DNA of 64,000 nucleotides from Bdellovibrionales bacterium (GTDB lineage Bacteria > Bdellovibrionota > Bdellovibrionia > Bdellovibrionales > UBA1609). Within the stretch, counting starts at the first letter, position 1; each line of letters starts with the position of its first letter. The position numbers and the translations under genes were made by a program. The notes beneath the pieces are model-generated. The model was given only the letters and a program-made list of their open reading frames with translations. It ran no database searches and was not told where the DNA came from. The stretch is from the NCBI GenBank assembly GCA_965242515.1, contig OZ251448.1, forward strand, positions 722,420-786,419. Direction: 5' to 3'. Positions 11,488 through 28,867 of this stretch are shown here, one piece after another.

Positions 11488-11521
11488 TATTGCCTCCTGT
11501 TTGAAAGTTTATAATACATAG

Positions 11522-13969: not shown

Positions 13970-14018
13970 AACTCAACTTTTGTCTTGAGAAAAAATACTC
14001 TAACAATGACACCTTTTT

Positions 14019-15227
14019 TCAACACCCATTGGGTTTAAATAAAAAATCAGGCTGCAATTGCTCTTCTGGAATATCTGTTTCCAAAGGTAAATAAATTTCA
14101 GTTTGTAAATTTATTTGTTTTAAGTATTGACACATCATAGGACCTACCACCTTCCAACTTAAACCACCTAACCCACAACCTAAAGCTGGTAAAGCTAAAG
14201 AGGTAATACCTTGGTTTTGATAATTGGTCACCAACCACTTTAAACCTTTTTCAATGCCTTCAAGAGGGGATTTTTCTCGCCAATGATTCTTGGTGGGAAA
14301 TAGCAAAAACCAACGATGACCATTTTCTGTCACAGCAGAAGGCACATCCTCCATAAGAGCTCTAACAAAATTAGCCTCTCTTTTATAAAGAACAGGAGTC
14401 CCCATTTTTAATTTCCTTTTATAGCAAAGAGCTTGATACTCTGTGTAGACATCCGGAAACTGATTTTTAGATCGAGAAGCCAAACCTTTACCCATAACAC
14501 CCACAGTATTAACACTGATTGTAAAAGTTTGCATTTCTGCAAAAAACATATCCCCCTTTTTTAAAGTAATATGAGCTAACCCTTCTTTTTGACTGGTTTG
14601 TTGTTGAAAAGGAAAAATAACTTGTTTGTATTCAGAAAGAAAAAACATTTTAGGATTTAACATAATATTTAAACCACCTATATCTATGCTTTGCCTAATT
14701 TGATTAGCGATTTTTTGAGTGGCTGTATAGATTCCTATAATTTTGTCCTTTGGAATATGATCTTGAACTAATACTTCTGCCATAATTTTTCTATTAGAAC
14801 CATCTTCTGCACTCCAATATTCCCGTTCAAACTGTTCAGAATTTAAAACACTTAAGCCTTTATTTTTATCTTCAAAAAACTGTGTTATTGAGGAGGAGGC
14901 ATTGCCATCTGTAATACCTATATTCAAACTATCTATAATATCTGCATCAATCTCTAAAACCACAATATTTTCTATTCCAAATTCTTTAATCACCCGATAA
15001 AGCATGGGATTGCGAGCTTGAAAATATACATTCGCATAGTCCCAAAGAGATTTTCCTCTAAATTCCCTTTCTTTTCTCCTAGCAATAACTTCCTTATCAT
15101 AAATAACCTTTTTCTTAAGAATCCGACTCCATACAGGTGCTTTACGATGAGATAAGATTCCATTTTTTAAAATGGACTTTAAATTATCTCTATGAGATAT
15201 ATAATATAAATGCTTTGGTCTATTCAT
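14019..15227 (-). CDS. DarT-like (DUF4433) ADP-ribosyltransferase fused to a DarG-type macrodomain
   Basis: aa 1-~190: LYYISHRDNLKSILKNGILS, YANVYFQARNPMLY, GITDGNASS, RKIMAEVLVQDHIP. aa ~225-400: ISVNTVGVMGKGLASRSKNQFPDVY, LLFPTKNHWREKS, ITSLALPALGCGLGGLSW. One uninterrupted 402-aa ORF. Confidence 0.8.
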   Translation of the reverse strand: MNRPKHLYYISHRDNLKSILKNGILSHRKAPVWSRILKKKVIYDKEVIARRKEREFRGKSLWDYANVYFQARNPMLYRVIKEFGIENIVVLEIDADIIDSLNIGITDGNASSSITQFFEDKNKGLSVLNSEQFEREYWSAEDGSNRKIMAEVLVQDHIPKDKIIGIYTATQKIANQIRQSIDIGGLNIMLNPKMFFLSEYKQVIFPFQQQTSQKEGLAHITLKKGDMFFAEMQTFTISVNTVGVMGKGLASRSKNQFPDVYTEYQALCYKRKLKMGTPVLYKREANFVRALMEDVPSAVTENGHRWFLLFPTKNHWREKSPLEGIEKGLKWLVTNYQNQGITSLALPALGCGLGGLSWKVVGPMMCQYLKQINLQTEIYLPLETDIPEEQLQPDFLFKPNGC

Positions 15228-15256
15228 AACAGTAATTATAACCTCTTATAAAACAA

Positions 15257-17797
15257 TTAGTCCAGAAAAGTAGTTAAATTCACATAGTTTTTAATATACT
15301 CTGGTATTATTGTTTGCCAGCCAGTTTTTTTTCCTCCTAAAGCTTGAAAATCTTCCATATCAAAACCAGCATTAGTATAAAGAGATGTAAGTTCTTTATT
15401 ATCAATAATATCTCTAAATTTTGAATTCGTAATATAAGATCTTATATAATTTACAATGTATGGAACATATTGAGGGTCTGGGTTATAAATAGAAATAAAT
15501 TTATCACACTCGTCTTTTAAAAGTTCTTCTTTTTTTGGAAAAGAATCAATCACTCCAAATACCCTCTGTAAAACTTCTCTCCAAGTAATTCGCCTATCTA
15601 GTTGCACTGCTTTTTTTATCTTTTCTAAACTCAAATATAGCTCTGGTTTATCTTCATATTTTTTAACAGCTATAGCTTCTGCTTTTTGCCATTGTTCCTT
15701 ATTTACAGCTAATTTTAATTCTTTATCTTTAACCAGAACATCTTTTGCCTTTCCCCATAGTTCCCTATCTACTCTCATACCTTCTAACCCTACTGCTTTT
15801 TCAGAAAGAGTTTTTAAAGAATCAGGATCATTAACTCTAACTTCATCAATATTAATACCTGCACCTTCTTCTGTGCTTGTATTTTGACCTTTTAACAGTG
15901 GCAGTTTTAAAGCTTCGTCATAGTTAAATTGATTTTCAAAAAATTCACAAACCGCAAAAAAATCAAACAGTTTAAATTTGTCTTTTTTTATTTTGTGTTC
16001 TTGATTGTTTTCATCCTTATATTTAAAAATGAATTTTCTAGTGCCACGCCCTTTCATTTGTATAAAATCTGTGGGAGAAAACACTGGTCTCATTAAACAA
16101 AGGTTTAAAATATCCTGACAATCATAACCTGTTGTCATCATACGCACTGTCACACAAACTCTTGTTTTACTAGACTTGTAACCCTCTAAACACTTTGTAT
16201 AACCATTTAATTTATTATTAGCAAAATTGATAGTATGTTGCTGAGCATTTTCAACATTAGATGTAACTTGTACAGCAAAATCAGAATTGTACTTGCCAGC
16301 CCATAAATTATGAGCCATTTTATTTAAAATCTGAGTAATTTTAGAAGCATGCTTTTGACTAACACAAAAAATAATACTCTTTCCAATCTCTCCACTTATT
16401 GGGTCTTTAAGAGCATGATCTAAAAAAGTTTTACAAAAAGCTATATTTGTTTTTTTAGAAAAAAACTTTTTCTCAAAATCTGTTTGATAAAAAACTTGCT
16501 CCTCTTCTTCTTGATCTTCATCTTCAATTTTAACACTATAGCCTTTTTCTGATAATAACTCTGTTGTTATGTCTGTTCTAGCATCCGATACAACAGGGTT
16601 AATTAAATACCCTTGTTTTACTCCGTCCATTAAACTATATTTAAATGTTGGCTCACTATCTTCACAACCAAATGTAGTATAAGTATCTAAGAGAAGTCGC
16701 CTTTCCCACTTTCTTTGATCTTTTTCTGCTAACTCTTGTTTATTAATGTTTTTCAAATAATCTTTCGGAGTAGCTGTTAAACCTAGCTTATACCCTATAA
16801 AATACTCAAATACTGCCCGACTATTACCACCAATAGACCTATGAGCTTCATCTGAAATAAGTAAGTCAAAATCTGTTGGGGAAAAAAATCTTTTATACTT
16901 ATTGCCTGCTAATAAACTTTGCACAGTGGAAATAACAATTTCTGCCTTATTCCAATTGTCTTTGTGTTCTTTATAAATTACTGATGTATAATCATTTTTT
17001 AAATAGTTTGTAAAATGCTTATAAGCTTGATCTTCAAGCTCTAACCTATCAACTAAAAATAAAATTCTTTTTGCATTTCCTGTTCTAAGAAAAAGCTTTA
17101 TAATAGCTGATGAAAGCAAGGTTTTACCTGTTCCTGTTGCCATTTCAAATAAAAACCGCTTTTTATCTTTTTGAGCATCAGCTTGTAAAGCCTTAATAGC
17201 CTTAACTTGATAAGGTCGTAAAATACGAACCCCATATTGATCTGCTAAAACCTGTTTTTTATCAGGGTTATTCCAGTCAGGGTCTTGAAGAAGCTCCGGT
17301 TTTTGAGAACTAGCAATGTAGTCCTCGCTAACCAATTCCTGCGATAACTTTTTAGGACTAGGTTTAAAACAAATTCTATGCTTAAAAGACTCCTGAGTAG
17401 GGAATTCTATAATCCCTTCAGGGTTACCAGATTCTAAATCCCAAAAATAATGTAAATTTCCGTTAGATAAAATCACAAAACGAACATTAACACTATGAGC
17501 GTATTTTCTAGCTTGCTCTTTAGCATCTAAAGGGTCTTTTTCTTCTCTTTTTGCCTCTAATACCGCCAAAGGAAAACCTTTTGCATCTAACAGTACATAA
17601 TCTACCCTACCATTTTTTGTGTTTTCAAAATTATCACCTTTAGCTAATAGGTCTTTTTTAGTAATTTTAACATTTAGTTCTAATTGAATGTTAGCTGTTT
17701 TTTTAGAATCTTTTGGATCATCAAAAAATCTCCAACCTGCTTTTTCTAACAGTTTGTTGATTTTAATACGAGCTTGAGCTTCTTTTTTAATAGACAT
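15257..17797 (-). CDS. hsdR: type I restriction enzyme R subunit (PD-(D/E)xK nuclease + SF2 helicase)
   Basis: N-terminus EAQARIKINKLLEKAGWRF and VDYVLLD...LAVLEAKRE (nuclease motif). MATGTGKT (Walker A), LISDEAHR (DEAH box), TGYDCQ and MKGRGTR helicase motifs. Confidence 0.85.
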   Translation of the reverse strand: MSIKKEAQARIKINKLLEKAGWRFFDDPKDSKKTANIQLELNVKITKKDLLAKGDNFENTKNGRVDYVLLDAKGFPLAVLEAKREEKDPLDAKEQARKYAHSVNVRFVILSNGNLHYFWDLESGNPEGIIEFPTQESFKHRICFKPSPKKLSQELVSEDYIASSQKPELLQDPDWNNPDKKQVLADQYGVRILRPYQVKAIKALQADAQKDKKRFLFEMATGTGKTLLSSAIIKLFLRTGNAKRILFLVDRLELEDQAYKHFTNYLKNDYTSVIYKEHKDNWNKAEIVISTVQSLLAGNKYKRFFSPTDFDLLISDEAHRSIGGNSRAVFEYFIGYKLGLTATPKDYLKNINKQELAEKDQRKWERRLLLDTYTTFGCEDSEPTFKYSLMDGVKQGYLINPVVSDARTDITTELLSEKGYSVKIEDEDQEEEEQVFYQTDFEKKFFSKKTNIAFCKTFLDHALKDPISGEIGKSIIFCVSQKHASKITQILNKMAHNLWAGKYNSDFAVQVTSNVENAQQHTINFANNKLNGYTKCLEGYKSSKTRVCVTVRMMTTGYDCQDILNLCLMRPVFSPTDFIQMKGRGTRKFIFKYKDENNQEHKIKKDKFKLFDFFAVCEFFENQFNYDEALKLPLLKGQNTSTEEGAGINIDEVRVNDPDSLKTLSEKAVGLEGMRVDRELWGKAKDVLVKDKELKLAVNKEQWQKAEAIAVKKYEDKPELYLSLEKIKKAVQLDRRITWREVLQRVFGVIDSFPKKEELLKDECDKFISIYNPDPQYVPYIVNYIRSYITNSKFRDIIDNKELTSLYTNAGFDMEDFQALGGKKTGWQTIIPEYIKNYVNLTTFLD

Positions 17798-17896
17798 ATT
17801 CTTCTTGTTTGTATTTGAAAGATTTTATTATAACAAAAACATAAGGAATAGTCAAGAGGTTATTAAAAGTAATTATGCTGATTTTTATCAATATTG

Positions 17897-17955
17897 TCAA
17901 AAGTGTCTCAAAATGATACACTTTTATTAAAGATAATAATTTGCTTAACTGATAT
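17897..17955. repeat. ~55-bp repeat with a palindromic core (copy 1 of 2)
   Basis: aaagtgtctcaaaatgatacacttttattaaagataataatttgctt matches 22608-22665 at about 80% by eye. The core agtgtctc-N-gaKacact is an inverted repeat. Confidence 0.6.
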
Positions 17956-17996: not shown

Positions 17997-19085
17997 CTAC
18001 TGCTTTTTTGAATGCTGTTTCTGTAGCTTTTTAAGCTCTTTTTCTGATAGCCCCGTCACCTCTGCAATAAACGGAATATCTACATTTTTCCGAAACATAT
18101 TCGCAATCACCTGTCGTCTTTCTTCCAGCCTGCCTTTTAGCTCACCAACTTGCATACCCTCTTGCAAGTATTTTTGTCTGGCTTGCAACATACCCTTCTT
18201 TATGCCTTTTGCCGTAGCTTCATCTAATGAGTATTGTAATGGTGCCATAACTCTTTCCTCCTTATCTGTTATTGTTTTAGCCTCTATCTTTCGCACGACC
18301 GTCCAACTAAAGTTCGGATCATACCTGACTATATAATCTGCAACCTTATCTATTAACTGTCTTCTTTTACCTATACTTATAACCTTGCTTAACTTAAATA
18401 AATCCCTTATCGTGCTATACTCTAACTTCCATATATTTTGCAGTATAAATAGTACCGGGCGAGAAAGCAAGTCCTCTATCTTCTTATCCCTTACATTTAG
18501 CTTGCTTATGTTAAGCAATCTATAACTAAAATTCAGCACATTTTTACCGAATGCTTGTTTTAAACTGCCTTCAAAGCCTGTTAAGCTATCTTGAAAAGCT
18601 AAAGGCTTGTTCCACTGCTTTTGCCTGCCATGGTAGATAACAATAGGTATAATGGGGAGTTTTGTTTTCTTGTAAATAGATGTTTGGTACTCCAGTAATT
18701 GTTGATGAATATTAGGTGCTTGTGAGCTTTTATGCTCTACTAAAAAAAGCATGCCTACTGTTTCGTTACTAGCTTTTTTCAGCTTTGCAGAAAGAAGAAG
18801 ATCTGTACGCTTTTCTTTAGAATCTTGGTCTATAAAAGTAGTAACTTCTGATTTAAGAGTGTTCCAATCAAAAAGAGCCATTTCTTGAGGGGTGAACACT
18901 AAGCGAAAAAGGTCTAGACAGTGCTTAGGTTTGGTGTAGATTTCTTTAAAGAAAATGTCGTGCAAAAAAGCTTTGCTTTTTTTGCCCTGCTTTGGGGCTT
19001 GTTTTAGGGCTTTTTTGTTCTGTTGTTTGTTTTGCGATTGAGCTTGTTTGCAAGCTTTAGTGGTATCAGGTTTTATTTTAGCCAT
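17997..19085 (-). CDS. Rpn-family recombination-promoting nuclease / putative transposase (PD-(D/E)xK, YhgA-like)
   Basis: HDIFFKEIYTKPKHCLDLFRLVF, TDLLLSAKL...MLFLVEHKSSQ, IIPIVIYHG and a C-terminal helical tail (IAEVTGLSEKELKKLQ) are typical of this family. Confidence 0.8.
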   Translation of the reverse strand: MAKIKPDTTKACKQAQSQNKQQNKKALKQAPKQGKKSKAFLHDIFFKEIYTKPKHCLDLFRLVFTPQEMALFDWNTLKSEVTTFIDQDSKEKRTDLLLSAKLKKASNETVGMLFLVEHKSSQAPNIHQQLLEYQTSIYKKTKLPIIPIVIYHGRQKQWNKPLAFQDSLTGFEGSLKQAFGKNVLNFSYRLLNISKLNVRDKKIEDLLSRPVLFILQNIWKLEYSTIRDLFKLSKVISIGKRRQLIDKVADYIVRYDPNFSWTVVRKIEAKTITDKEERVMAPLQYSLDEATAKGIKKGMLQARQKYLQEGMQVGELKGRLEERRQVIANMFRKNVDIPFIAEVTGLSEKELKKLQKQHSKKQ

Positions 19086-19651
19086 TATTTGCTCCTTTGT
19101 TTTTCATAATTTACCTCCTCCGTTGTATCCTAAAAAATTTCATCTACTAAACTACATGCAAAATCGAGTCCAAGCTTAAAAAAGATCTTCTGATGCCCCC
19201 AAAGGGGAGTATTTCTGATTCTGTTGCTTGCATGTACCCCAACCTCACCCAATCCATAGACTAATAAATGTAACTTTTTTGTGGTCAAAGAAGCTGGAGG
19301 GGGATATTTTTTGGGTCCAAGCGGAGCGTCCCACAAAAATCTTCCCCTCCCGCTTCGTGCCTCTCAAACAAAAAAATTTCCCAATGCTGATAATAAAAAA
19401 GCCCACTTTTGGACAAAAATATGTCCAAAAAATGTACATTTTTATGTACACTTTTTCATAAATGCACATTTTTTGCATAAAATATGAGATTGGTATGAGG
19501 TAAAGAACACCCAAGGCACAAGGCTTTTTAACTCAAAGTTTGTGTGGGGCGATGTGCCAAACAAACCAGCATATTAAGGGTAGCAAGCCTTAACGCTTCT
19601 CATTACATATATAATCTTTAGACTTTTATGGTACTTTTGGGGGTGAGGGTT

Positions 19652-20008
19652 TTACCCATTTTCTTTTTGTAGCTTTTTTTTGATGGAATCTGCTTTTTGG
19701 GTTAAGCTTTTTAAAGCTAAGTAGTTATTTGAAGTTATTAAAATACGATTTGCTTTACCGGTTTTTGCTTTTGTTTGTTTTTCCATTTTTTTTAAAAAGT
19801 CTCGCACTGCTTTTTCTGCTTGCATATATTTAAGTAATAATTCTTTTTTTTCTTGATAGTACTTTCTTATATATTCTCTGTCGTAGGCTCTTTTAATCTT
19901 TGTTTTGCAAGCTTTAGCCCCACAGGTCTTTTTTTTATTCTTTTTTATAATAAATTGCTTGCCACAAACAATACACTTAGTTTTTTGCCTTAAAGCTTTT
20001 TTAGGCAT
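19652..20008 (-). CDS. hypothetical Lys-rich small protein with a possible zinc ribbon
   Basis: 118-aa ORF. CIVCGK...CGAKAC Cys pairs near the N-terminus, then a highly basic helical remainder. No family recognised. Confidence 0.4.
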   Translation of the reverse strand: MPKKALRQKTKCIVCGKQFIIKKNKKKTCGAKACKTKIKRAYDREYIRKYYQEKKELLLKYMQAEKAVRDFLKKMEKQTKAKTGKANRILITSNNYLALKSLTQKADSIKKKLQKENG

Positions 20009-20171
20009 TATTTAAACCCCTTCTTAACATTGAGAGGCTGAAATAAATCAGCCTCCAATAATTAAGACATGTTGTGTGTAAAAGCTGTCTCACTAACCCT
20101 CACACACTTTACGCCCACCATAAACACAGGAGGTATTAAATTAGTGAGCATACTCTTTTAACTTTCAAACT

Positions 20172-20819
20172 CTATGTACATAACCCTGTACTAGCTCCAC
20201 AATCTCCATTTGTGGCGAATTGCTTACATAATTTTGTAGGAGATGCCGAACAACCCGTATCCATATTTGTAGTAGATGCACTCGCACAATCATTTGTTGC
20301 ACTTTGACAAGTTTTTAAAGGACTTGCAGGCTTTTCTTTCCCGTCATCACCAGATGCTGTACATCCAGTTTGAGTAATCCCACAAATTTTTGTTTTACCT
20401 ATCAAAGCCCCCCCGTATGTTCTAAAGGTTGATCCGTTAGATGTATCCATTGACACACAAACTTTAAATTCATTATTAGCTGTACCTTTACTTATTTCAG
20501 CACAAAAGTTTGTTCCGCCTTTACCTACAGTACAAGTAGCGTCCCCAGGGCATGATATGCTTATCTTACCTAAGGTATCACAAGACCCAAAATCGTTTAA
20601 AACTAAGCAATTTTGTAAAGCTTTAACTATATTTGACGCTGAAGTATCACTTGCCACTCTCGCCGCATTATCCTTATAGTTTTTAAACTGCGGAATTGCT
20701 ATCGCTGATATAATACCAATAATAGACACAGCTACCAACACCTCCAGCAAGCTAAAACCCTTATTGTTTAAGAGCTTTTTACATCGCTTGCGTGTAAAAA
20801 ATTGTTTTATTTTATTCAT
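20172..20819 (-). CDS. type IV pilin-like protein (prepilin with N-terminal cleavage/methylation motif), Cys-rich
   Basis: ...LLNNKG|FSLLEVLVAVSIIGIISAIAIPQF matches G|F(T/S)LxE with Glu at +5. 21-aa leader. 14 Cys in the mature part. AAGGAGG Shine-Dalgarno upstream. Confidence 0.8.
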   Translation of the reverse strand: MNKIKQFFTRKRCKKLLNNKGFSLLEVLVAVSIIGIISAIAIPQFKNYKDNAARVASDTSASNIVKALQNCLVLNDFGSCDTLGKISISCPGDATCTVGKGGTNFCAEISKGTANNEFKVCVSMDTSNGSTFRTYGGALIGKTKICGITQTGCTASGDDGKEKPASPLKTCQSATNDCASASTTNMDTGCSASPTKLCKQFATNGDCGASTGLCT

Positions 20820-20839
20820 TGTATCCTCCTTGTTGTTGT

Positions 20840-21151
20840 TTATTGTTTGTTTTTGTTTATCCTAGAATCAAAGCCTCTTAACTCCTTAGCTTCAGACGCT
20901 CCAACTCCCTTTAATCCATAATCCCATTCCATACCCCTAAGTTTTAAATCTGAATTGTACTTTTCAGCATGTTTTTTTAAAATCTCTAACTTGTGATTTG
21001 TATCCTTTACATAAGATTCCCACCTTGTGATCCTGTTATAGTAATAAAGTCCATAAAAACTTATACAGCACATGGTGAATCCAAAATGCATAAATAACAG
21101 AGCCGTTATGAATTTCTTATCATACTTTGTAAGGTTTGATTTTTCAGACAT
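20840..21151 (-). CDS. hypothetical small membrane protein, probably co-transcribed with the pilin
   Basis: The track ORF extends to 21214. ATG at the complement of 21149-21151 is preceded by GGAGG. One hydrophobic segment (FITALLFMHFGFTMCCISFYGLYYY). Confidence 0.45.
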   Translation of the reverse strand: MSEKSNLTKYDKKFITALLFMHFGFTMCCISFYGLYYYNRITRWESYVKDTNHKLEILKKHAEKYNSDLKLRGMEWDYGLKGVGASEAKELRGFDSRINKNKQ

Positions 21152-21239
21152 TACTGCCTCCATGTGTTTCAATTTGGGTGGATTCCTGCTCAACATTATC
21201 TCTGTCAATATCACTTAATAAACTATTTCTTTGGTATAA

Positions 21240-21347
21240 GGGGAAAAACCAATTCAAAACGAGTTCGGATTTAACGCAAAGTGGTAGCCTTTGGCTAACA
21301 CTTTTGCGGTAAACCGCAGTCCAAAGCTTTTGACTTGGTTTTTCCCC
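21240..21347. repeat. ~110-nt imperfect palindromic element, copy 1 (subfamily a)
   Basis: ggggaaaaaccaattcaaaacgagttcggatttaacgcaaagtggtagcctttggctaacacttttgcggtaaaccgcagtccaaagcttttgacttggtttttcccc. The outer, middle and apical arms are self-complementary. Confidence 0.85.
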
Positions 21348-21413
21348 TATACGCATAAAGTAGTCATAAGCGAATAATCCTCTCTGCACTTTATTATGTA
21401 CAAATAACTTTCT

Positions 21414-21476
21414 GGATTCCCGCCTTCGCGGGAATGACAGTGGATGCAGGAATGACAGCGGACGCAGAAATGACAA
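21414..21476. repeat. REP-like unit: palindrome ATTCCCGC-CTTC-GCGGGAAT followed by degenerate GAATGACA repeats
   Basis: ggattcccgccttcgcgggaatgacagtggatgcaggaatgacagcggacgcagaaatgaca. The same unit recurs at 21765, 39344 and 63799, and in inverted form at 63745. Confidence 0.85.
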
Positions 21477-21524
21477 TGGTAGAAAAACCAGATTCGAAAA
21501 CAAAAACATATATGCTTCATTGCA

Positions 21525-21637
21525 GAGAGAAAAACCATGCTCAAAACGAGTTCGGATTTGATACAAAGTGGTAAGCTGAAAGCTTGACACTTTGTAGCAA
21601 ACCGCATGTTTGAGATTTTGAGCTCGGTTTTTCTCTC
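21525..21637. repeat. ~110-nt imperfect palindromic element, copy 2 (subfamily b)
   Basis: gagagaaaaaccatgctcaaaacgagttcggatttgatacaaagtggtaagctgaaagcttgacactttgtagcaaaccgcatgtttgagattttgagctcggtttttctctc. Confidence 0.85.
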
Positions 21638-21764
21638 TGTGAAAGAAACTTTTTAAATAATGAACCAGCCTGGATTCCTGCCTTCGCACACCCAAAGGGT
21701 GTTTATTTTGACACACTCCTTGCACCAACAACTTAATAGCTGTCAATGGTACAAAATTCTTGCT

Positions 21765-21826
21765 GGATTCCCGCCTTCGCGGGAATGACAGTTGACGAAG
21801 AAATGACAGTTGACGAAAAAATGACG
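21765..21826. repeat. REP-like unit (ATTCCCGC-CTTC-GCGGGAAT + GAAATGACA repeats)
   Basis: ggattcccgccttcgcgggaatgacagttgacgaagaaatgacagttgacgaaaaaatgacg. Confidence 0.85.
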
Positions 21827-21905
21827 AGCGATGAAAGAAATAAAACAGATAACTAATGTAATTCTTTAATGCTGTTTTTAAATAGTGAAATGATGTTCTT
21901 GAATA

Positions 21906-22015
21906 GTGAGAAAACCAATTCAAAACGAGTTCGGATTTGATACAAAGTGGTAAGCTGAAAAGCTTGACACTTTGTGGCAAACCGCATGTTTGAGCTTTTG
22001 ACTTGGTTTTCTCAC
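21906..22015. repeat. ~110-nt imperfect palindromic element, copy 3 (subfamily b)
   Basis: gtgagaaaaccaattcaaaacgagttcggatttgatacaaagtggtaagctgaaaagcttgacactttgtggcaaaccgcatgtttgagcttttgacttggttttctcac. Confidence 0.85.
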
Positions 22016-22144
22016 TAACCAAGTACTTACAACTAACCAAATATTTATAGAACCGAGTAAAGAGAAAACGATAAAGAGCGTTAGCTCTTTTACTCCCCCC
22101 GCTTAGTAAGCGGGGGGTTGGGGGGGTGATTAAATTAATTAATA

Positions 22145-22296
22145 GATGTAACGATGTAACGATGTAACGATGTAACGATGTAACGATGTAACGATGTAAC
22201 GATGTAACGATGTAACGATGTAACGATGTAACGATGTAACGATGTAACGATGTAACGATGTAACGATGTAACGATGTAACGATGTAACGATGTAAC
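22145..22296. repeat. perfect tandem array, 19 x 8 bp (GATGTAAC)
   Basis: Counted unit by unit: first unit 22145-22152, last 22289-22296, no mismatch. This array generates the spurious RYIVTSLH-repeat ORFs in the track. Confidence 0.95.
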
Positions 22297-22607
22297 GAGA
22301 ATAACACATTAGCTTCATATTGTCAAGCCTTTGTGTAAAAATAATCTTACTAAAAGTAAGTTTAAAAAAAAGCATTAAAAATTATCTCCAATAGTGTTGT
22401 GCCTTAATGTTAGCTTTATCGGCGGGATTAAAAAAGACTTTAGTACTTTTTTTTAAAATAATCTGGACTTGTGGCTGGATTTTAAACAGCAACAATTTTT
22501 GTCACCGCCCGTGGCTCGCCAAAAAACCCACCACTGGGCTAGTTAGTGACTAGGTTTTAAACAATCGCCCCGCTTAAAAAAAAAATTAAAGTTTTTTTAC
22601 TTTTTTT

Positions 22608-22665
22608 CTAAAGTGTCTCATTTTGAGACACTATTGTTAAAGATAATAACTTGCTTTAAATTATC
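22608..22665. repeat. ~55-bp repeat with a perfect palindromic core (copy 2 of 2)
   Basis: ctaaagtgtctcattttgagacactattgttaaagataataacttgctttaa. agtgtctc/gagacact is a perfect 8-bp inverted repeat. Matches 17897-17955. Confidence 0.6.
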
Positions 22666-22710
22666 TTGCATCAATCTATATTTGAAGCACTGATGCAAAC
22701 TTTTTAAGAT

Positions 22711-22785
22711 GGGTTCTTTAAGCTTTCAGAAAAAGAGCTAAAAAAGCTACAAAAAAAGCATATCTCAAGCAAAAACACCATGTAA
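22711..22785 (+). pseudogene. relic of the 3' end of an Rpn-family gene
   Basis: Translates GFFKLSEKELKKLQKKHISSKNTM*. Protein and DNA resemble the C-terminus of the intact Rpn gene (GLSEKELKKLQKQHSKKQ*; ctatcagaaaaagagcttaaaaagctacagaaacagcat vs ctttcagaaaaagagctaaaaaagctacaaaaaaagcat). No upstream body. Confidence 0.4.
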
Positions 22786-23001
22786 CTGGAGAGGTAATTG
22801 TTTGGCAGAAAAATAAAAAAATCTCTGTAATTTCAATAGTTTAACCCATGTAACGGGCATGTAACTGGAGGAGCTGATTACATGGCAATAAAATGAAAAA
22901 AGTTCTTTGATTTTAAGGGTTTAAGCCATGTAACTCAGCATGTAACTGGAAATGAGTAGTGAATATTCGCAAAAAAAGCTGTTTTTAGTGAGTTATCAGG
23001 G
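22766..23001. repeat. direct repeat A flanking the Schlafen-like gene (28-bp head + 178-bp body) with five ATGTAAC motifs
   Basis: Body 22824-23001 equals 24695-24872 with 4 mismatches in 178. ATGTAAC at 22780, 22848, 22859, 22928 and 22940. Confidence 0.9.
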
Positions 23002-23129
23002 TGTAGTGTATAAAAAATAAGCTTAATTTTTAAGTAAAAATGGAGCTGAAACTTGCAATCTTTGTAAATTTTAGGACTTAGGTTTTAATACTTAAAAATA
23101 AATTGTATGTATGATACCCTGTTATTGTA

Positions 23130-24581
23130 ATGAACAATTCGCAATTTAAACAACTCATAAAAAGCCTTTTACAAGCTCAGGAATCAGAGTGGTTGGAATT
23201 TAAAAAGAGCAATGATAATCCTGATGGTATTGGCAAAAACATATCTGCTATTTCTAACTCAATAGCATTATTAGGAAGGGACCAAGGGTATATATTATGG
23301 GGTATTGATAATAAGAGCAAAAAAATTTTAGGAACAAGCTTTCAACCCAAAAAATTTAAGATCGGAAATGAAGAGTTGGAAAATTGGCTTTCAAGATTGT
23401 TAAATCCTAAAATTGATTTTAGGATTTATGAAAAAGAAATTGATAAAAAAAATATTATTTTGTTGGAAATTAAGTCTTCTGTAAACCAGCCTACAAGGTT
23501 TAAAGGTATTGAATACATACGCATTGGAAGTTATACAAAAAAATTACAAGAACATCCTGAAAAAGAGAAAACACTTTGGAAAGTATTTGATGTTAAGTCT
23601 TTTGAAAATGGGATAGCTTTGGAAAATATCACTTCTGATGAAGTTTTGAAATTGATAGACTACCCAGGTTATTTTAAAAAGGCTGATCAGCCTATTCCTG
23701 AAAAGCATTCTTCTATCTTAGATCGTTTAACGACTGAACAAATTATTGTTCCTAAAAATGCTTCTGGAATCTATAACATAACAAATCTAGGTGCTGTTTT
23801 ATTTTGTAATGATTTAAAAAATTTCCAAAGGCTTATTAAAAAAGCACCAAGAGTTATTGTTTATAAAGGGACTGACCGTATTCATGGAATAAGAGAAAAA
23901 CAATTTAATAAAGGATATGCTATAGATTTTGAAAATATCGTTGATTATGTTGACAGTCAGGTTCCTAAAAATGAGGAAATACAAAAATCTCTTCGTAAAG
24001 AAGTTTCTATGTACCCTACTTTAGCTATTCGGGAACTTATAGCTAATGCACTTATACATCAGGATTTTAATTCTAAAGGTTCTGGACCAATGATTGAGAT
24101 TTTTTCTGATAGAATGGAAATTTCTAACCCTGGAAAACCGCTAATTGATACTCTTCGTTTTATAGATGAACCTCCTAAATCAAGAAATGAATTTATAGTT
24201 AATTTTATGAGACGAGTGAATATCTGTGAAGATAGAGGAAGTGGTATTGATAAAGTTATTTTTGAAATCGAATTTTATCAATTACCAGCACCAGATTTTC
24301 GGGAAACAGGTTTTTCCACAATTGTTACACTTTTTGCAACAAAAACATTTTCTAAAATGACCACTGAAGAGCGAATAAGAGCCTGTTATCAGCATGCTTG
24401 TCTTCAGTGGGTTTCAGGGCGGTTTCTGACTAATTCAAGCCTTAGAAAAAGATTTGGCATTTCTGACAAAAACTATCCTATGGTTTCTCAAGTGATACGC
24501 ACTAGTATAGAAAAAAAGTTGATAAGAAAAAAAAATGATCATAATTCCAATACTCATTCTTATATTCCAGCTTGGGGATAG
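23130..24581 (+). CDS. Schlafen/AlbA_2-domain + HATPase_c_4 + C-terminal wHTH putative regulator (RecG-like annotation family)
   Basis: ESEWLEFKKS (AlbA_2 signature). RELIANALIHQDF...IEIFSDRMEISNPGKPL (HATPase_c_4 signature). C-terminal FLTNSSLRKRFGISDKNYPMVSQVIRTSIEKKLI looks like a wHTH. Confidence 0.8.
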   Translation: MNNSQFKQLIKSLLQAQESEWLEFKKSNDNPDGIGKNISAISNSIALLGRDQGYILWGIDNKSKKILGTSFQPKKFKIGNEELENWLSRLLNPKIDFRIYEKEIDKKNIILLEIKSSVNQPTRFKGIEYIRIGSYTKKLQEHPEKEKTLWKVFDVKSFENGIALENITSDEVLKLIDYPGYFKKADQPIPEKHSSILDRLTTEQIIVPKNASGIYNITNLGAVLFCNDLKNFQRLIKKAPRVIVYKGTDRIHGIREKQFNKGYAIDFENIVDYVDSQVPKNEEIQKSLRKEVSMYPTLAIRELIANALIHQDFNSKGSGPMIEIFSDRMEISNPGKPLIDTLRFIDEPPKSRNEFIVNFMRRVNICEDRGSGIDKVIFEIEFYQLPAPDFRETGFSTIVTLFATKTFSKMTTEERIRACYQHACLQWVSGRFLTNSSLRKRFGISDKNYPMVSQVIRTSIEKKLIRKKNDHNSNTHSYIPAWG

Positions 24582-24635
24582 ATCAGAAATATAAGCTATA
24601 AAAATCTGTTTATTTTATAACCATCATTAATTTTT

Positions 24636-24872
24636 CAAGCAAAAAAACCATGTAACTGGAGGGTATGATGCGTTGCATTAAAACATCATAAAGTTCTGTA
24701 ATTTCAATAGTTTAACCCATGTAACGGGCATGTAACTGGAGGAGGTGATTACATGGCAATAAAATGAAAAAAGTTCTTTGATTTTAAGGGTTTAAGCCAT
24801 GTAACTCAGCAGGTAACTGGAAATGAGTAGTGAATATTCGAAAAAAAAGCTGTTTCTAGTGAGTTATCAGGG
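24636..24872. repeat. direct repeat B (partner of 22766-23001)
   Basis: Same-order motifs. The fifth motif is AGGTAAC instead of ATGTAAC. Confidence 0.9.
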
Positions 24873-24885
24873 ATTAACGCAAGAG

Positions 24886-24910
24886 CAAAGCAAAGCAAAG
24901 CAAAGCAAAT
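24886..24910. repeat. short pentanucleotide repeat (CAAAG)4 + CAAAT
   Basis: caaagcaaagcaaagcaaagcaaat read directly. Confidence 0.8.
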
Positions 24911-25053
24911 AAGGTAAAACAGGCACCCAGTAATTAAATAGCAACTTCTTACAGCCTGAGCTGAGAAGGCATATTCCCACAAACCACCAGAACATAAAAG
25001 CTTGTAATTTTTACACCTTTAAAAAAAAAATATCTTTTATTTATAATCGGTTA

Positions 25054-25805
25054 GGGTCATGACAACTTAAGCCTTACATGATAAGGTTTAAATCTTGAAA
25101 ATTATTAAGAAAAATAAGTATTTTGTGCGTTCCCGCATTTCTGAGAAGAAATTTCGCCATATTATTAAGCTTTTTTCGAATGATCTCACAGCTTCACAAA
25201 TTGCTAGATTATCCAATATTAGCAGAAATTCTGTTAATAAAATCTTAAAAACTGTAAGATTAAAGATAGCTCAATTTTGTGAAAAAGAAAGTTTTTTTAA
25301 AAAAGGAGAAGTAGAAATAGATGAAAGTTATTTTGGAGCTAGACGAATCAAAGGCAGAAGAGGAAGAGGATCTTATGGTAAAACTATTGTGTTTGGTCTT
25401 AAACAAAGACAAGGTAAGGTTTATACTCAAATTATTAAAAATTGTTCACACAAGACCCTTATTCCCCTTATAAGTAATAGAATATCTAAATCTGCTACTG
25501 TTTATACAGATGGTTTTAAAAGCTACGATGGTCTAGTCAATATGGGTTACAAAAAACATTATCGTGTGTATCATGGGAAGAATGAATTTGCCACAAAACG
25601 AGGTAATGTGAAGAATCATATTAATGGTATAGAAAGCTTTTGGGGGACCTCCAAAGTGAGGTTATCAAAGTTTAGAGGAATGGATAAAGATACTTTTTAC
25701 TTGCATCTTAAAGAATGTGAGTTTAGGTTTAATCACAGGAAGGATGACTTGTATACTTTGTTGTTAAAAATGATTAAAAATAACCCGCTTAAGTTGTCAT
25801 GACCC
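25054..25805 (+). mobile_element. intact IS1595-family insertion sequence with target-site duplication
   Basis: Perfect 19-bp terminal inverted repeats: gggtcatgacaacttaagc (25054-25072) and gcttaagttgtcatgaccc (25787-25805). Flanked by the 8-bp direct duplication ATCGGTTA (25046-25053 and 25806-25813). Confidence 0.9.
25095..25802 (+). CDS. IS1595-family DDE transposase
   Basis: IDESYFGARRIKGRRGRGSYGKTIVFGL..., TVYTDGFKSYDGL, NHINGIESFWGTSKVRLSKFRGM and ECEFRFNHR are typical of ISXO2-like/IS1595 transposases. Confidence 0.9.
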   Translation: MKIIKKNKYFVRSRISEKKFRHIIKLFSNDLTASQIARLSNISRNSVNKILKTVRLKIAQFCEKESFFKKGEVEIDESYFGARRIKGRRGRGSYGKTIVFGLKQRQGKVYTQIIKNCSHKTLIPLISNRISKSATVYTDGFKSYDGLVNMGYKKHYRVYHGKNEFATKRGNVKNHINGIESFWGTSKVRLSKFRGMDKDTFYLHLKECEFRFNHRKDDLYTLLLKMIKNNPLKLS

Positions 25806-25861
25806 ATCGGTTATTATAAAAACAGTTTTTCACCAAAAAAGAAAGATAGGAGGATGTATTT

Positions 25862-26533
25862 ATGAAAAATAAAACAATAATTTTAAGTGTGCTGGCTTTA
25901 TCAGTAATGGCTTTATTTTCAAGCTTTAGTTTTGCAGGCTGGGGTGGTGCATATTCGTATATGGAAGGCGAAAGCTCATCTTTACCAATATCTCATGCCC
26001 TTTATTTAAAAGAAGATGGTACGGTTTGTGTGGCTGATTTTGAAGGTCAAAGTGAAGATTTATTAGCACAATTAAAAAGCAACACTTCAATTACAAAATG
26101 CAGTGATAAAGATACAAGGCAAGTGGCTACAACTTACAGTCAATACTTTTATAATGACAATAATTCTTTTAAGGCAACAAAAGTGGCACTACCAGCTATG
26201 TTAGGTGGTGGAATTGCTTCAGCAGTAGTAGGATGTGTAATGGGGCATCTAGGAGCAAAAGTACAAGCAGAAAATCGCATAACTGATAATAGAATCATAG
26301 GTGTGGATGCATCTGATGGTGTATCTGATATGGAACCTCGAGAATCAATGATAGCTGGTGGTGCGGCTGGTATAATAGGAGGTTTTCCAGTGCTGGGTGC
26401 TCTAGAATCGGCAGCTGGTATTCTTGTAGAATTCAGTGGTCTGGCAGTATCGGGAGCTTTGGGTGCTTTTATTTGTGGTAAAACCACTTATGAGTATATG
26501 GGGCAAGGCTCTGATGAAAATCACGACAATTAA
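25862..26533 (+). CDS. secreted protein with glycine-zipper hydrophobic segments (paralogous C-terminus to 27257..28867)
   Basis: Signal peptide MKNKTIILSVLALSVMALFSSFSFA. GGGIASAVVGCVMG, IAGGAAGIIGGFPVLGA, GLAVSGALGAFICGKTTYEY. AGGAGG Shine-Dalgarno upstream. Confidence 0.55.
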   Translation: MKNKTIILSVLALSVMALFSSFSFAGWGGAYSYMEGESSSLPISHALYLKEDGTVCVADFEGQSEDLLAQLKSNTSITKCSDKDTRQVATTYSQYFYNDNNSFKATKVALPAMLGGGIASAVVGCVMGHLGAKVQAENRITDNRIIGVDASDGVSDMEPRESMIAGGAAGIIGGFPVLGALESAAGILVEFSGLAVSGALGAFICGKTTYEYMGQGSDENHDN

Positions 26534-26565
26534 AACCCTCTCTAAAGCTACCATTAATTTTGTTT

Positions 26566-26621
26566 AAAAAATAGTGGCTCGGAAATATTTTCCGAAGTTT
26601 TTAGATAACCACTATTTTTTT
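26566..26621. terminator. bidirectional stem-loop terminator between convergent genes
   Basis: Inner stem tcggaaa-tat-tttccga (26579-26595) followed by agttttt. Outer arms aaaaaatagtgg / ccactattttttt. Confidence 0.6.
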
Positions 26622-26916
26622 ACTTAGTAGTAGAAGAAGTAGTGCGAGAGATAGATTTAGTTTTTTTCTTTTTTTTAGGTGCAAAATATTGTTTGTATTG
26701 TGAGTTTTTTTGAACTTGTAGCCATATCAGTTTATCTAATTTGTCGTTCAAGCGATCTATATGTGCTTCCATACGGTTTTCTACACGGTTGATACGCATT
26801 TCTACCCGGTGGATGTCTCTTTTAATAGGAGATAGCATGGCATTAAACGAAACCAATAATAAACTTAAAAAACCTATAAGAAAAATACCAGCTGTAAATA
26901 AGTCTTTTTTATCCAT
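26620..26916 (-). CDS. hypothetical single-pass membrane coiled-coil protein
   Basis: 98 aa. TM segment LFTAGIFLIGFLSLLLVSF, repeated RVEMRINRVENRMEAHIDRLNDKLDKL, basic tail. Confidence 0.45.
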   Translation of the reverse strand: MDKKDLFTAGIFLIGFLSLLLVSFNAMLSPIKRDIHRVEMRINRVENRMEAHIDRLNDKLDKLIWLQVQKNSQYKQYFAPKKKKKTKSISRTTSSTTK

Positions 26917-27256
26917 AATGTAATTATTATAGCATAATTTAGTGCTTAAAGCAATGTATTAAAAGCCATTTTAGGGCAATAATTAGCCACTTAAAGCCAC
27001 ACACAAAAACTTAAAGCCTGAAACAAAAAAAGCTAAAGATTTCTTATAAAAACAGGACTTTAGGGCTAGTATTTGTTTTCATAATAGAGCTTAAACAAAA
27101 GTCCTAATACTAAAAAATCCAATTATTTTAAGTAGTTATGAGATGAAAAAAAAAAAAAAACGGATTTTTTATTTTATTTTTTATTTTATCTCGCCGATAA
27201 TGATATGTAAGGCTACTTAAAAAGTTAAATAAAGAACATATAAGGAGGAGTAAAAA

Positions 27257-28867
27257 ATGAAAACTACAATAACTAAAGCATTGCAGGTAATGGCTTGTTT
27301 GATTTTATCATCAGTGATAGTGATTTTGACTCCAGCGGAAAGCTTAGGGCAAGCACGGGCTACCATGGGGCGTGGGAATGTTGAACACTCTTTAAAGAAA
27401 AAAGAGGAAAGAGCAAATCAAGGTGTGAAGGCGACTATGGGTTACAGAAATGTGGGTAATGCAGAGGAAGCAAGTAATAAATGGAGAAAGAGGAGAAAAA
27501 CGGCAAATCAATGGTCAAGCTCCTTATTGTTTAAAAAAGCACGGAAATGGAGAAAGAGGAGAAAAACGGCAAATCAGAGGAGAAAAACGGCAAATCAATG
27601 GAGAAGGACTAGAAGAATAGAACCAGAAGTAGAGGTGGCAAAAGGTACCAGTAAAAATGACGGTTTTCGAAGAAAAACATCCGCAAAACCCTCTGGTGCT
27701 AGTAATAAAAGCCCGAATCCAAGTCCATACCCCGACCCATGGAACTGGGATAATAGGGGAAAAGCTCCCACCACTACGGGCAAAAGACCTCGGCACCCAA
27801 AACCTTGGGTGAATAGGGTTAGCACTACTGAAGCTTTGATGCAGTTAAACAATATGGGAGCTGTAATGGCTTTTAAACCCACACCAAACGGTGGTTTTTG
27901 CCGGATTGATGTGAGGGGTAGAACTAAATCTACACCTTCTTTTGTAAAACCTGCTGGAGGGCGAGACCCACTGCCAAAAAGCACAACTCCTGCTTGTAGC
28001 TCTCAAGAACAGAAGGCTTTTCAACAAACAGCTAAAAAAATGCAAATAAAAAATGGAGTAACAGCACAAAAAACTAGTGGGGCTATACTGGGGGCATTGG
28101 CAAAGTCAGCGGGAATAGGTTGTGTTTTTGGAGCAGGTATTGCTTGGATTGCTGATATGTTTAGTGGTGATTCGGAAGATAAAAAAACGCAAGCCTCGGC
28201 TAATTGTGTGGATTGTGCTAATAAAAAAAGCAAAGAAGCTAAAGAGGTAGAAGAAATAAGAGCTGCCACAATAGTCGCAGCCGGTGCAGGTGGGGGTATT
28301 GCAACAGGAATTGTAGGACATCATTCATTAAGATATATAGTGCCAGAGATGGAAGTAGCAGCAGCAAAGAAGATACTTATTACAGATGAAACTAATCAGA
28401 AGTTAAAACCAATGGCAGACCCTGAATATGCAAAAAAGAAGGTAGCATTTTTTGAATCACAAATTCTTAAATTAAAAGAACGACAGGCTCAAAAAGGGTT
28501 AGACCGTAACGTTCGTCACAATATCGAAATAGAAATAGCTGAAAAGAATAGTGCTAAGTCATTTTGGAACAAAGTAATAGATTTACAACAACAATCTCCA
28601 AAAACATCAGGTGGTTCTGCTTTAATAAATTTAGTAGAGCAAAGAGTAACTAAAAAAGTGAGCAAGATCCCAGATAAAGAAGTAGTAGCAAAATTAGATT
28701 CTATGCAACAACGACGACTTAATATGAAATTTAATGAAGGTATTGTAGGACTCAAATCGATGGTATCGGCAGGAGTATCTGCCCTAGCGGGTGGGATAGC
28801 AGGAGCTATTGTATGCGAAGATGGTACAACCTACTTACTTACCGATAATCCTAAAACCGACATTTAA
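27257..28867 (+). CDS. secreted protein with basic tandem repeats and glycine-zipper segments
   Basis: Signal-like N-terminus, repeated KWRKRRKTANQ units, GAILGALAKSAGIGCVFGAGIAWIA, AAGAGGGIATGIVG, and C-terminal VSAGVSALAGGIAGAIVCEDGTTYLL resembling the C-terminus of 25862..26533. AGGAGG Shine-Dalgarno upstream. Confidence 0.55.
   Translation: MKTTITKALQVMACLILSSVIVILTPAESLGQARATMGRGNVEHSLKKKEERANQGVKATMGYRNVGNAEEASNKWRKRRKTANQWSSSLLFKKARKWRKRRKTANQRRKTANQWRRTRRIEPEVEVAKGTSKNDGFRRKTSAKPSGASNKSPNPSPYPDPWNWDNRGKAPTTTGKRPRHPKPWVNRVSTTEALMQLNNMGAVMAFKPTPNGGFCRIDVRGRTKSTPSFVKPAGGRDPLPKSTTPACSSQEQKAFQQTAKKMQIKNGVTAQKTSGAILGALAKSAGIGCVFGAGIAWIADMFSGDSEDKKTQASANCVDCANKKSKEAKEVEEIRAATIVAAGAGGGIATGIVGHHSLRYIVPEMEVAAAKKILITDETNQKLKPMADPEYAKKKVAFFESQILKLKERQAQKGLDRNVRHNIEIEIAEKNSAKSFWNKVIDLQQQSPKTSGGSALINLVEQRVTKKVSKIPDKEVVAKLDSMQQRRLNMKFNEGIVGLKSMVSAGVSALAGGIAGAIVCEDGTTYLLTDNPKTDI

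Follow-up and report, generated by a model that had tools for sequence, protein, structure and literature searches.

The 64-kb stretch of Bdellovibrionales DNA analysed here (contig OZ251448.1; below, the window) contains a gene for a 483-aa protein with Schlafen, ATPase and winged-helix domains, enclosed by two near-identical direct repeats that carry the motif ATGTAAC. These repeats are very probably the protein's own DNA sites, because across related loci changes in the motif go together with changes in the recognition helix and wing of the protein. We give a probability of about three in four to this reading, drawn from sequence comparison, in which the C-terminal winged helix has the ATGTAAC repeats as its cognate sites on double-stranded DNA. 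The linkage of array and gene, the architecture of the array, its helical phasing and the co-variation of motif and helix each come directly out of the computation. The original prediction had named the encoded protein as a candidate binder of ATGTAAC, and linkage across phyla together with the co-variation now argues for that proposal beyond proximity. Two points that it did not contain are the usual anchoring of the array 3' of the gene and the generality of the arrangement. The features concerned, all on the + strand, are the following.

22760 to 23001, + strand: left (upstream) copy of the array, ending 129 bp before the start codon; a lineage-specific duplicate
22766 to 22838, + strand: unit A of the left copy, with one site
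22839 to 22918, + strand: unit B of the left copy, with two sites 11 bp apart
22919 to 23001, + strand: unit C of the left copy, with two sites 12 bp apart
23130 to 24581, + strand: Schlatpase-HTH (helix-turn-helix) gene, 483 aa, assigned from Pfam, invariant columns, AlphaFold2, Foldseek and the literature
24465 to 24512, + strand: predicted recognition-helix codons, residues 446-461 (KNYPMVSQVI...)
24522 to 24578, + strand: wing codons, covering strands 465-467 and 478-480 and the loop between them, with a conserved C-terminal Y-[IV]-P-x-W
24630 to 24872, + strand: right (downstream) copy of the array, beginning 49 bp past the stop codon, the canonical position in the family

The window contains 35 copies of ATGTAAC, where 9.8 +/- 3.3 are expected, and none of 100 shuffles reached 35. 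The whole repeat unit of ~242 bp (22760-23001 and 24630-24872, in direct orientation) is composed of a head of 32 nt (22760-22791 and 24630-24661, 91% identity), a patch of 27-28 nt that is unrelated between the left and right copies in pairwise alignment, and a body of 183 nt (22819-23001 and 24690-24872, 97% identity). Pairwise alignment reproduced the 4 mismatches over 178 nt that had been claimed for the body, and the head shared before each body was likewise recovered. Five sites had been predicted per copy. The left copy has five exact ones (22780, 22848, 22859, 22928 and 22940) and the right copy four (24650, 24719, 24730 and 24799) plus the variant AGGTAAC at 24811; with the 19 copies of an octamer array further upstream this gives the predicted minimum of 28 exact ATGTAAC copies. 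The array consensus in the window is C-ATGTAAC-NGG. Spacing is 11 and 12 bp within pairs and ~80 bp between them, and the internal duplication was found by Tandem Repeats Finder (period 80, 2.1 copies, 22779-22950), each copy being made up of three tandem units of ~70-80 bp, ~78% alike, with 1 + 2 + 2 sites. No further copy of the ~242-bp unit is present elsewhere in the window, and tblastn of 19000-23129 and 24582-27300 detected no remnant of a second copy of the gene near the repeats.

The domain content predicted for the protein was borne out by Pfam and by an AlphaFold2 model. SLFN_AlbA_2 (PF04326) matches residues 18-139 (3.6e-20, 73.1 bits against a curated cut-off of 25.3) and is followed by the GHKL ATPase domain HATPase_c_4 (PF13749) at residues 317-401 (2e-23, 82.6 bits against a cut-off of 26). 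The model, with a mean pLDDT (predicted local distance difference test) of 84, places a winged helix at residues 412-483, with helices at 412-428, 435-442 and 446-461 and strands at 465-467 and 478-480. Structure searches with Foldseek matched the Schlafen fold (human SLFN11, 7ZEL, E 3.4e-4; 2KYY, E 2.6e-4; 3LMM, E 1e-19), gave weak matches to histidine-kinase CA (ATP-binding) domains, and matched the C-terminal winged helix locally to MarR-type structures. The catalytic motif E-x4-(E/D)-x-K, as defined by Taboada et al. (10.1101/2025.07.24.666596), is present as E18-SEWL-E23-F-K25, and E18, E23 and K25 are invariant among homologues in two alignments (A1 and A4). PADLOC returned only weak partial matches to other systems, and NCBIfam returned none. 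The architecture has been called pSlfn-HisKinase-HTH (Taboada et al., 10.1101/2025.07.24.666596) and Schlatpase-HTH in the RzAgo preprint (10.64898/2026.05.29.728809), where it was reported to be the commonest prokaryotic Schlafen (60,692 SLFN+GHKL proteins, with HTH domains in more than 90% of the C-terminal tails). Genes of this kind are reported from type I restriction-modification (R-M) and BREX-like loci (BREX survey, PMC12839542). The window protein is most likely a defence-type Schlafen RNase, as predicted from its motifs and folds, with a DNA-reading tail. It has been shown that the SLFN+GHKL module of RzAgo forms a dimer of dimers on ATP binding and so becomes an active tRNase, and that in another assembly it is kept inactive by a sensor domain (10.64898/2026.05.29.728809); ATP-driven tetramerisation of the window protein is assumed by homology with RzAgo.

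Evidence that array and gene belong together came from two scans, which covered the subfamily at at least 43% identity and one paralogue. In the motif-first scan CATGTAAC-N3-5-CATGTAACTGGA was sought in 185,579 species genomes, one per species, and 23 loci were returned from at least six phyla (Bacteroidota, Bacillota, Cyanobacteriota, Verrucomicrobiota, Pseudomonadota, Chloroflexota and others), almost all consisting of two clusters of 2-3 sites with an 11-bp period, 66-100 bp apart. At eight of the 23, tblastn placed a homologue 45-52% identical to the window protein directly beside the array, which usually lies a few bases past the stop codon on the same strand; four Segatella loci have a 25%-identity paralogue instead. 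For the protein-first scan 80 metagenome loci at 48-56% identity were fetched. Exact ATGTAAC is found in few of these and nearly all share the architecture with a different motif, such as TTATGTGAC-gg, TTATTTGA(C/T)-gg, GTACTTGAT-gg, TAATTGAT-gg, TTGCTTGAC, TTGTTTGA, TCGTTGAC, TCATTTGC or GAATTGTACAC; 14 motif classes were used. A tandem pair of 9-mers lies within 250 bp past the stop codon in 53 of 74 loci, compared with 7/70 for upstream sequence, 3/74 within coding sequence and 7/58 further downstream. Two or more copies of one class hexamer occur within 200 bp past the stop in 75 of 81 homologous loci, for which we estimate, by a rough calculation of our own, a chance frequency below 2%. 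The density of class hexamers past the stop is 11 per kb as against 0.25-0.5 per kb elsewhere, the coding strand is favoured by 261 to 5, and the first cluster begins a median of 13 bp past the stop codon. The motif is kept exactly across phyla while the spacers diverge completely, and all sites of one locus switch motif together. Seven annotated plasmids (from Providencia, Desulfosarcina, Burkholderia, Aliarcobacter, two Cupriavidus and Sulfitobacter) all have the array past the gene, and most plasmid-borne copies are in non-mobilizable replicons beside restriction genes.

The modal layout of the array is two clusters of two sites, sometimes three per cluster. Spacing within clusters is 11 bp in 119 of 128 cases, and the distances between clusters peak at 66-69, 76-80, 87-91, 96-98, 110 and 118-121 bp. 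The period that best describes the inter-cluster distances is 10.85 bp, with a Rayleigh R of 0.53 against a maximum of 0.39 in 5000 trials of a jitter null, a p-value that is optimistic because related loci share distances by descent. Clusters are thus separated by integer steps of ~11 bp and all sites therefore fall on one face of the helix. A single helical register is a property of duplex DNA, which argues for one complex contacting both clusters.

Further evidence came from C-terminal alignments sorted by motif class, from which the co-variation was read. At the start of the recognition helix, loci with ATGTAA have N-Y-P-[MA], those with ATGTGA have N-Y-[SA]-[IM], those with ATGTGC have D-Y-P-V, and all of the ..TTGA classes have N-[SRAK]-[AS]. 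The positions concerned are those of Y449 and P450 in the window protein, which co-vary with motif positions 5 and 7: the four-cell counts are 33/0/2/45 for Tyr against G5/T5 and 14/2/0/13 for Pro against ATGTAA/ATGTGA, each of the two exceptions in the latter combining a site of one kind with a site of the other. The two exceptions for Tyr (L011 and L084; surveyed loci are given by number) each have an extra array of ATGTAAC a short way beyond. Across the family, the wing loop varies in step with the opening bases of the motif. Of the loci with a motif beginning in G, 7/8 have G-[ST]-K-A, against 0/72 of the rest, and [AP]PK[LMH]M is found in 7/8 ACTTG loci and 0/72 others. In the AlphaFold2 model the co-varying residues sit at the N-terminal end of the recognition helix and in the loop of the wing. 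A tree built from the first 370 residues of the protein shows 35 changes of motif class and at least six of G5/T5, so the association of motif and helix does not reflect one ancient split. On the plasmids, which had been held out, the motif was predicted by the Tyr rule in 7/7 cases and by the G-wing rule in 2/2.

Several observations weigh against the view that the repeats are the protein's own sites. The clusters in the clade of the window lie 78-80 bp apart, which is no exact multiple of 11, and in relatives the pairs have a degenerate second site (ATGTCAT, GTGTAAC, TTGTAAT). The octamer array has an 8-bp period that misfits the 11-bp rule. The downstream segments used to define the motif classes are also those for which enrichment is quoted above, so that those figures are partly circular. 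Orphan arrays lacking the gene were seen in Segatella, in L005 and in the viral loci L116 and L127, and the array that stands directly past the gene in L011 and L084 does not match. The genes downstream of the arrays are heterogeneous and sometimes of housekeeping type (e.g. purL-type). Promoters of the sigma-70-like type were not enriched in inter-cluster spacers (3/33 vs 4.7 in shuffles), and none was found in the window repeats, where the counts from the window scan fall below those of shuffles. Finally, gene and array are co-inherited and part of the co-variation is phylogenetic, a difficulty mitigated, though not removed, by the 35 class changes and the plasmid test set.

The exceptional loci merit some description. 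At L011 (about +4 to +270) and L084 (+7/+18) an ATTTGAC-type array stands directly past a gene whose helix is of the ATGTAAC type, and the matching ATGTAAC array of L084 is inverted, on the - strand at +286/+297; this suggests that recombination can stack or swap arrays. In Segatella and Prevotella (L003, L004, L008, L010, L012, L013, L014 and L022) an ATGTAAC 2+2 array stands beside a conserved 710-aa gene wherever the locus reaches that far. Before this array come a relic of the canonical C-terminus (cttgggcataa) and a long microsatellite with a 10-bp unit, (GGTCGTTTGC)n, which in Segatella directly follows the 25%-identity paralogue. The gene before the array varies, being either a 562-aa AlbA_2 paralogue or one for a 336-aa protein, and the locus looks like a hotspot at which genes are exchanged while the array persists. 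Two scans of viral contigs yielded numerous motif pairs where the gene is absent. Most are isolated pairs in AT-rich DNA or belong to coding repeats (e.g. the L112 family) and so are not interpretable, and only L116, L127 and L114 look like true orphan arrays. L116 has three ATGTAAC sites with an 11-bp period (about 2577-2610), 73 bp past a large-terminase gene. L127 has a 2+2 array (2265-2430) from the stop codon of an 88-aa HigA-like HTH gene, whose small product has no homology to the window winged helix. These three viral arrays could be decoys, prophage cargo or unrelated.

The presence of two copies in the window can be accounted for by comparison with the five closest relatives covered (L104-L108, 64-79% identity), which have 1-4 tandem units of ~79 bp past the gene, homologous to the window units, and no array upstream of it. 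As these have the 3' array only, the right copy is taken as the canonical array and the left as a lineage-specific duplicate, either recent or kept alike by gene conversion, since the bodies are 98% identical over 178 nt. The suggestion in the original prediction that a regulatory region had been duplicated thus holds, with the downstream copy canonical and the upstream copy absent from the five relatives. Upstream copies of the locus's own motif are also present in L039 and L092, and L015 has an upstream array only, so the bracket is a recurrent minority variant. Array size varies through tandem units of cluster plus spacer, of which there are five of ~98 bp in L069 (+18 to +410) and four of 78 bp in L106 (5507-5745). 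L108 (64% identity) has at 5610-5640 a relic of the gene's last codons (tttttgggcataatttATGTAAT) inside its downstream array, evidence of past duplications that took in the 3' end of the gene.

Actual binding, its stoichiometry and its consequence we infer from these results. The standard layout of the family is a gene, its stop codon and then a coding-strand array of at least two clusters. The tandem winged helices of one dimer would occupy one cluster, and two dimers, joined as a dimer of dimers as in the RzAgo Schlatpase module, would bridge two, an assembly that the phased 2+2 array would fit. In the window the canonical 3' array (24630-24872) has been duplicated upstream of the gene (22760-23001), and the protein should therefore also sit before its own gene and autoregulate. 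As to consequence, two possibilities are put forward tentatively and with equal weight. The array may be a docking platform on which freshly synthesised nuclease stays bound to DNA and inactive, or an operator or roadblock acting on read-through into the next gene, which is often hsdR or a different effector gene and in the window is the Schlafen gene itself; what weight is left falls to both together or to something else. A more speculative proposal, to which we attach less weight than to either, is that the array is a private chromosomal 'home base' onto which new protein would be loaded in cis, as separated or constrained dimers with the tRNase off, the DNA acting as antitoxin. If docking were lost, because host DNA is degraded, because phage DNA mimics directed also against the neighbouring R-M or BREX systems displace the protein, or because the locus is deleted, the released protein would assemble into the ATP-driven active tetramer and trigger abortive infection. 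The rapid switching of motif and helix would then reflect an arms race with phage decoy arrays, for which L116 and L127 would be candidates.

The alternative that survives best is that of pure transcriptional control, in which the array is the promoter or operator of the next gene (here the Schlafen gene) and the protein is mainly a controller, like the C proteins of R-M systems. We regard this as a serious though still doubtful contender. Consistent with it, the array often lies between modification-type genes (HsdS, Methylase_S, the upstream neighbour at 6/50 loci) and genes for restriction or effector proteins (HSDR_N as downstream neighbour at 9/49, with DNA methylases, DUF499, PLD (PLDc_2), SWI2_SNF2 and ResIII also seen there). 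Example layouts are L109, with the array before an hsdR-like gene, and L110, with the array between a DUF1156 methylase and a PLD anti-phage protein. Judged by eye, the second cluster ends ~10-50 bp before the next start codon in L053, L076, L085, L099, L109 and L110, and the upstream copies in the window, L039, L092 and L015 would also suit an operator. Against this, the array is anchored to the stop of its own gene, at the median of 13 bp, and to no particular downstream gene; the neighbours are many and unrelated, some loci have no co-oriented open reading frame (ORF) past the array, and the nuclease and ATPase motifs are retained in the protein. The classical operator reading is weakened by the lack of enrichment of sigma-70-like promoters; the scans covered that promoter type, and regulation through other types is thus still compatible. 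The operator proposed in the original prediction is a candidate reading, with no sigma-70-like promoter enriched in the arrays.

It is improbable that the repeats act at the level of RNA, as 3' untranslated repeats serving as RNA antitoxin or RNase substrate in the manner of type III toxin-antitoxin systems. The protein is a predicted RNase, the strand bias of 261 to 5 past the stop means that the repeats are probably co-transcribed with the gene, and some winged helices bind RNA. The strict 11-bp period and the inter-cluster multiples of ~10.85 bp are, on the other hand, properties of a double helix. The array RNA gave no structure signal (z = +0.31), the matching pair of L084 is on the opposite strand, and the co-varying residues lie in canonical DNA-reading elements of the AlphaFold2 model. 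An Rfam scan of the window at gathering thresholds found tRNA only, and a permissive scan of 21000-25100 only a sub-threshold U7.

Less probable again is that the ~242-bp repeats are the ends of a mobile cassette, resembling attL and attR, between which the gene is excised or inserted by recombination. The direct repeats bracket exactly one gene with bodies 98% alike, gene and array occur in many different contexts, and the Segatella array persists while the gene upstream differs. The norm of the family is nevertheless one 3' array and not two, no integrase is consistently linked (it is the downstream neighbour in 1/49 loci) and no recombinase partner was found, and the repeats are direct, not inverted. 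The motif also diversifies together with the protein helix, which would not be expected of recombination sites for a separate enzyme. This part of the original prediction is accordingly not supported; homologous recombination between the copies could delete the gene as a by-product. We consider it more unlikely still that the repeats are iterons, as had also been suggested, of a replication origin, or the partition centromere of an integrated plasmid-like element. Phased direct repeats beside the gene of a DNA-binding protein do resemble iterons and parC-type centromeres, and some homologues are on plasmids. The censuses of neighbouring genes, made up of defence and unrelated genes, contain no Rep or Par ATPase, however, and no Rep or origin feature was noticed in the loci, where origin features were not systematically searched; the contexts are chromosomal defence islands and the interiors of defence operons, and most of the plasmid copies are in non-mobilizable replicons next to restriction genes. 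Least credible is that the repeats are functionless products of slippage or duplication associated with the gene by shared descent, since, rich as the region is in other repeats (the octamer, (GCAAA)6, hairpin elements), the exact motif across phyla despite divergent spacers, the joint switching of motifs and the helical phasing all speak against it.

Other features of the window near the gene and in a defence island 5 kb away (10690-17797, - strand), which is of type I R-M/DarTG composition, are listed here.

22145 to 22298, + strand: (GATGTAAC) x19.2 perfect microsatellite (Tandem Repeats Finder, period 8, 100%)
24879 to 24909, + strand: (GCAAA)x6 microsatellite immediately 3' of the right copy, given for context
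25095 to 25802, + strand: IS1595-family transposase gene (Pfam DDE_Tnp_IS1595, 5.6e-27), given for context
15257 to 17797, - strand: HsdR, defence island
14019 to 15227, - strand: fusion of DarT and a macro domain (DarG-type), 402 aa, defence island
11522 to 13969, - strand: HsdM-HsdS fusion, defence island
10690 to 11487, - strand: Hypoth_Ymh protein, defence island

The octamer array contains its 19 ATGTAAC copies at 22146-22296. It has the 7-nt core in common with the array motif, with an 8-bp period and other flanking bases, and from the shared core it may be part of the same system. As the array is 100% perfect, recent expansion or frequent slippage of (GATGTAAC)19 is suggested. On the - strand it is crossed by a spurious 387-aa ORF (21144-22307). 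Microsatellites of the motif with periods other than 11 bp are also found near related arrays, in L013 (10 bp), L017 (13 bp x4) and the viral L111 (12 bp x5). At the position of the IS1595-family gene many homologous loci have a co-oriented defence gene, and the insertion sequence may have displaced the gene originally 3' of the right array. Further upstream lie three copies of a ~120-nt element (21233-21350, 21520-21640 and 21899-22026), 65-85% alike, which on either strand fold into a long and almost perfect hairpin (z = -7.3 to -9.2), have no Rfam match and look like a miniature inverted-repeat transposable element (MITE) or palindromic element. Between them is an 88-nt direct repeat (81%; 21398-21485 and 21749-21836) containing GGATTCCCGCCTTCGCGGGAATGACAG and then 18-nt tandem units of the AATGACAG type. 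A stretch of 53 nt at 22604-22656 is 83% identical to 17894-17946 and includes a short inverted repeat (aagtgtctcattttgagacactat); this may be a common terminator or the end of a mobile element.

The DNA target of the HTH, the way in which the nuclease of the Schlatpase-HTH proteins is controlled and gene-adjacent repeats are not stated in the Schlatpase papers (10.1101/2025.07.24.666596; 10.64898/2026.05.29.728809; PMC12839542). No description of 3'-anchored, phased arrays of variable specificity was found in the full-text-searchable literature, outside which most subscription journals fall. The protein family is thus known and the new element is the array with its specificity code. We propose that this code is readable, the helix Tyr/Pro and the wing loop being set against motif positions 3-7. 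A known target array would allow specificity swaps, chromatin immunoprecipitation and structures with the correct DNA, and better annotation may become possible for thousands of 'intergenic repeats' in defence islands. The window repeats are themselves accounted for, with the downstream copy canonical and the upstream one a recent duplicate that probably adds autoregulation.

Comparison with known systems can be made at several levels. In type III toxin-antitoxin systems such as ToxIN an RNase gene is accompanied by family-specific tandem repeats; the ToxI repeats are 34-36 nt long, lie upstream and form a structured RNA. The window locus is similar in that a predicted RNase gene is tightly linked to a short tandem array, and different in that the array is downstream, the evidence points towards duplex DNA, the fold score is z = +0.31 and there is no Rfam family. 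The IncFII RepA-CIS-ori arrangement places sites immediately downstream of their own gene, favouring cis loading, and ParR-parC centromeres are phased short direct repeats, 11-bp iterons. The window loci differ from both in having no replication or partition partner genes in the neighbour censuses and in their chromosomal defence context. Regulators of the OmpR/PhoB type bind as head-to-tail winged helices on direct repeats about one turn (11 bp) apart; the window protein, unlike these, has no receiver domain, gives MarR-like fold matches and is accompanied by at least two phased clusters ~66-121 bp apart. The C-boxes of type II R-M systems and the sites of the BrxR/CapW regulators are inverted repeats lying upstream over the promoter, and the regulators themselves have no effector nuclease. 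There is a likeness here in the regulator gene within a defence operon with adjacent sites, the array of the window family often standing before a restriction or effector gene, and a difference in that these arrays carry no promoter signal.

RptR represses a defence island of type I R-M and DarTG in enteropathogenic Escherichia coli (EPEC) and is a small dimer, entirely helical, that recognises palindromic TAGCTA sites, a conserved motif, in the promoter upstream of its own gene (PMC12255303). It resembles the window protein as a defence-island DNA-binding protein that reads short direct repeats, and the window has its own HsdR-DarTG-HsdMS island, in which DarT and the macro domain are fused, unlike those of the EPEC island. 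The window system differs in being built on a 483-aa nuclease-ATPase-winged-helix protein with phased arrays past the gene and a variable motif. Membership of the RptR family was rejected on the different protein architecture and motif. The closest likeness is to the Schlatpase-HTH proteins, which have the same domains and the same setting in defence islands related to type I R-M and BREX, and of which the window protein is a member.

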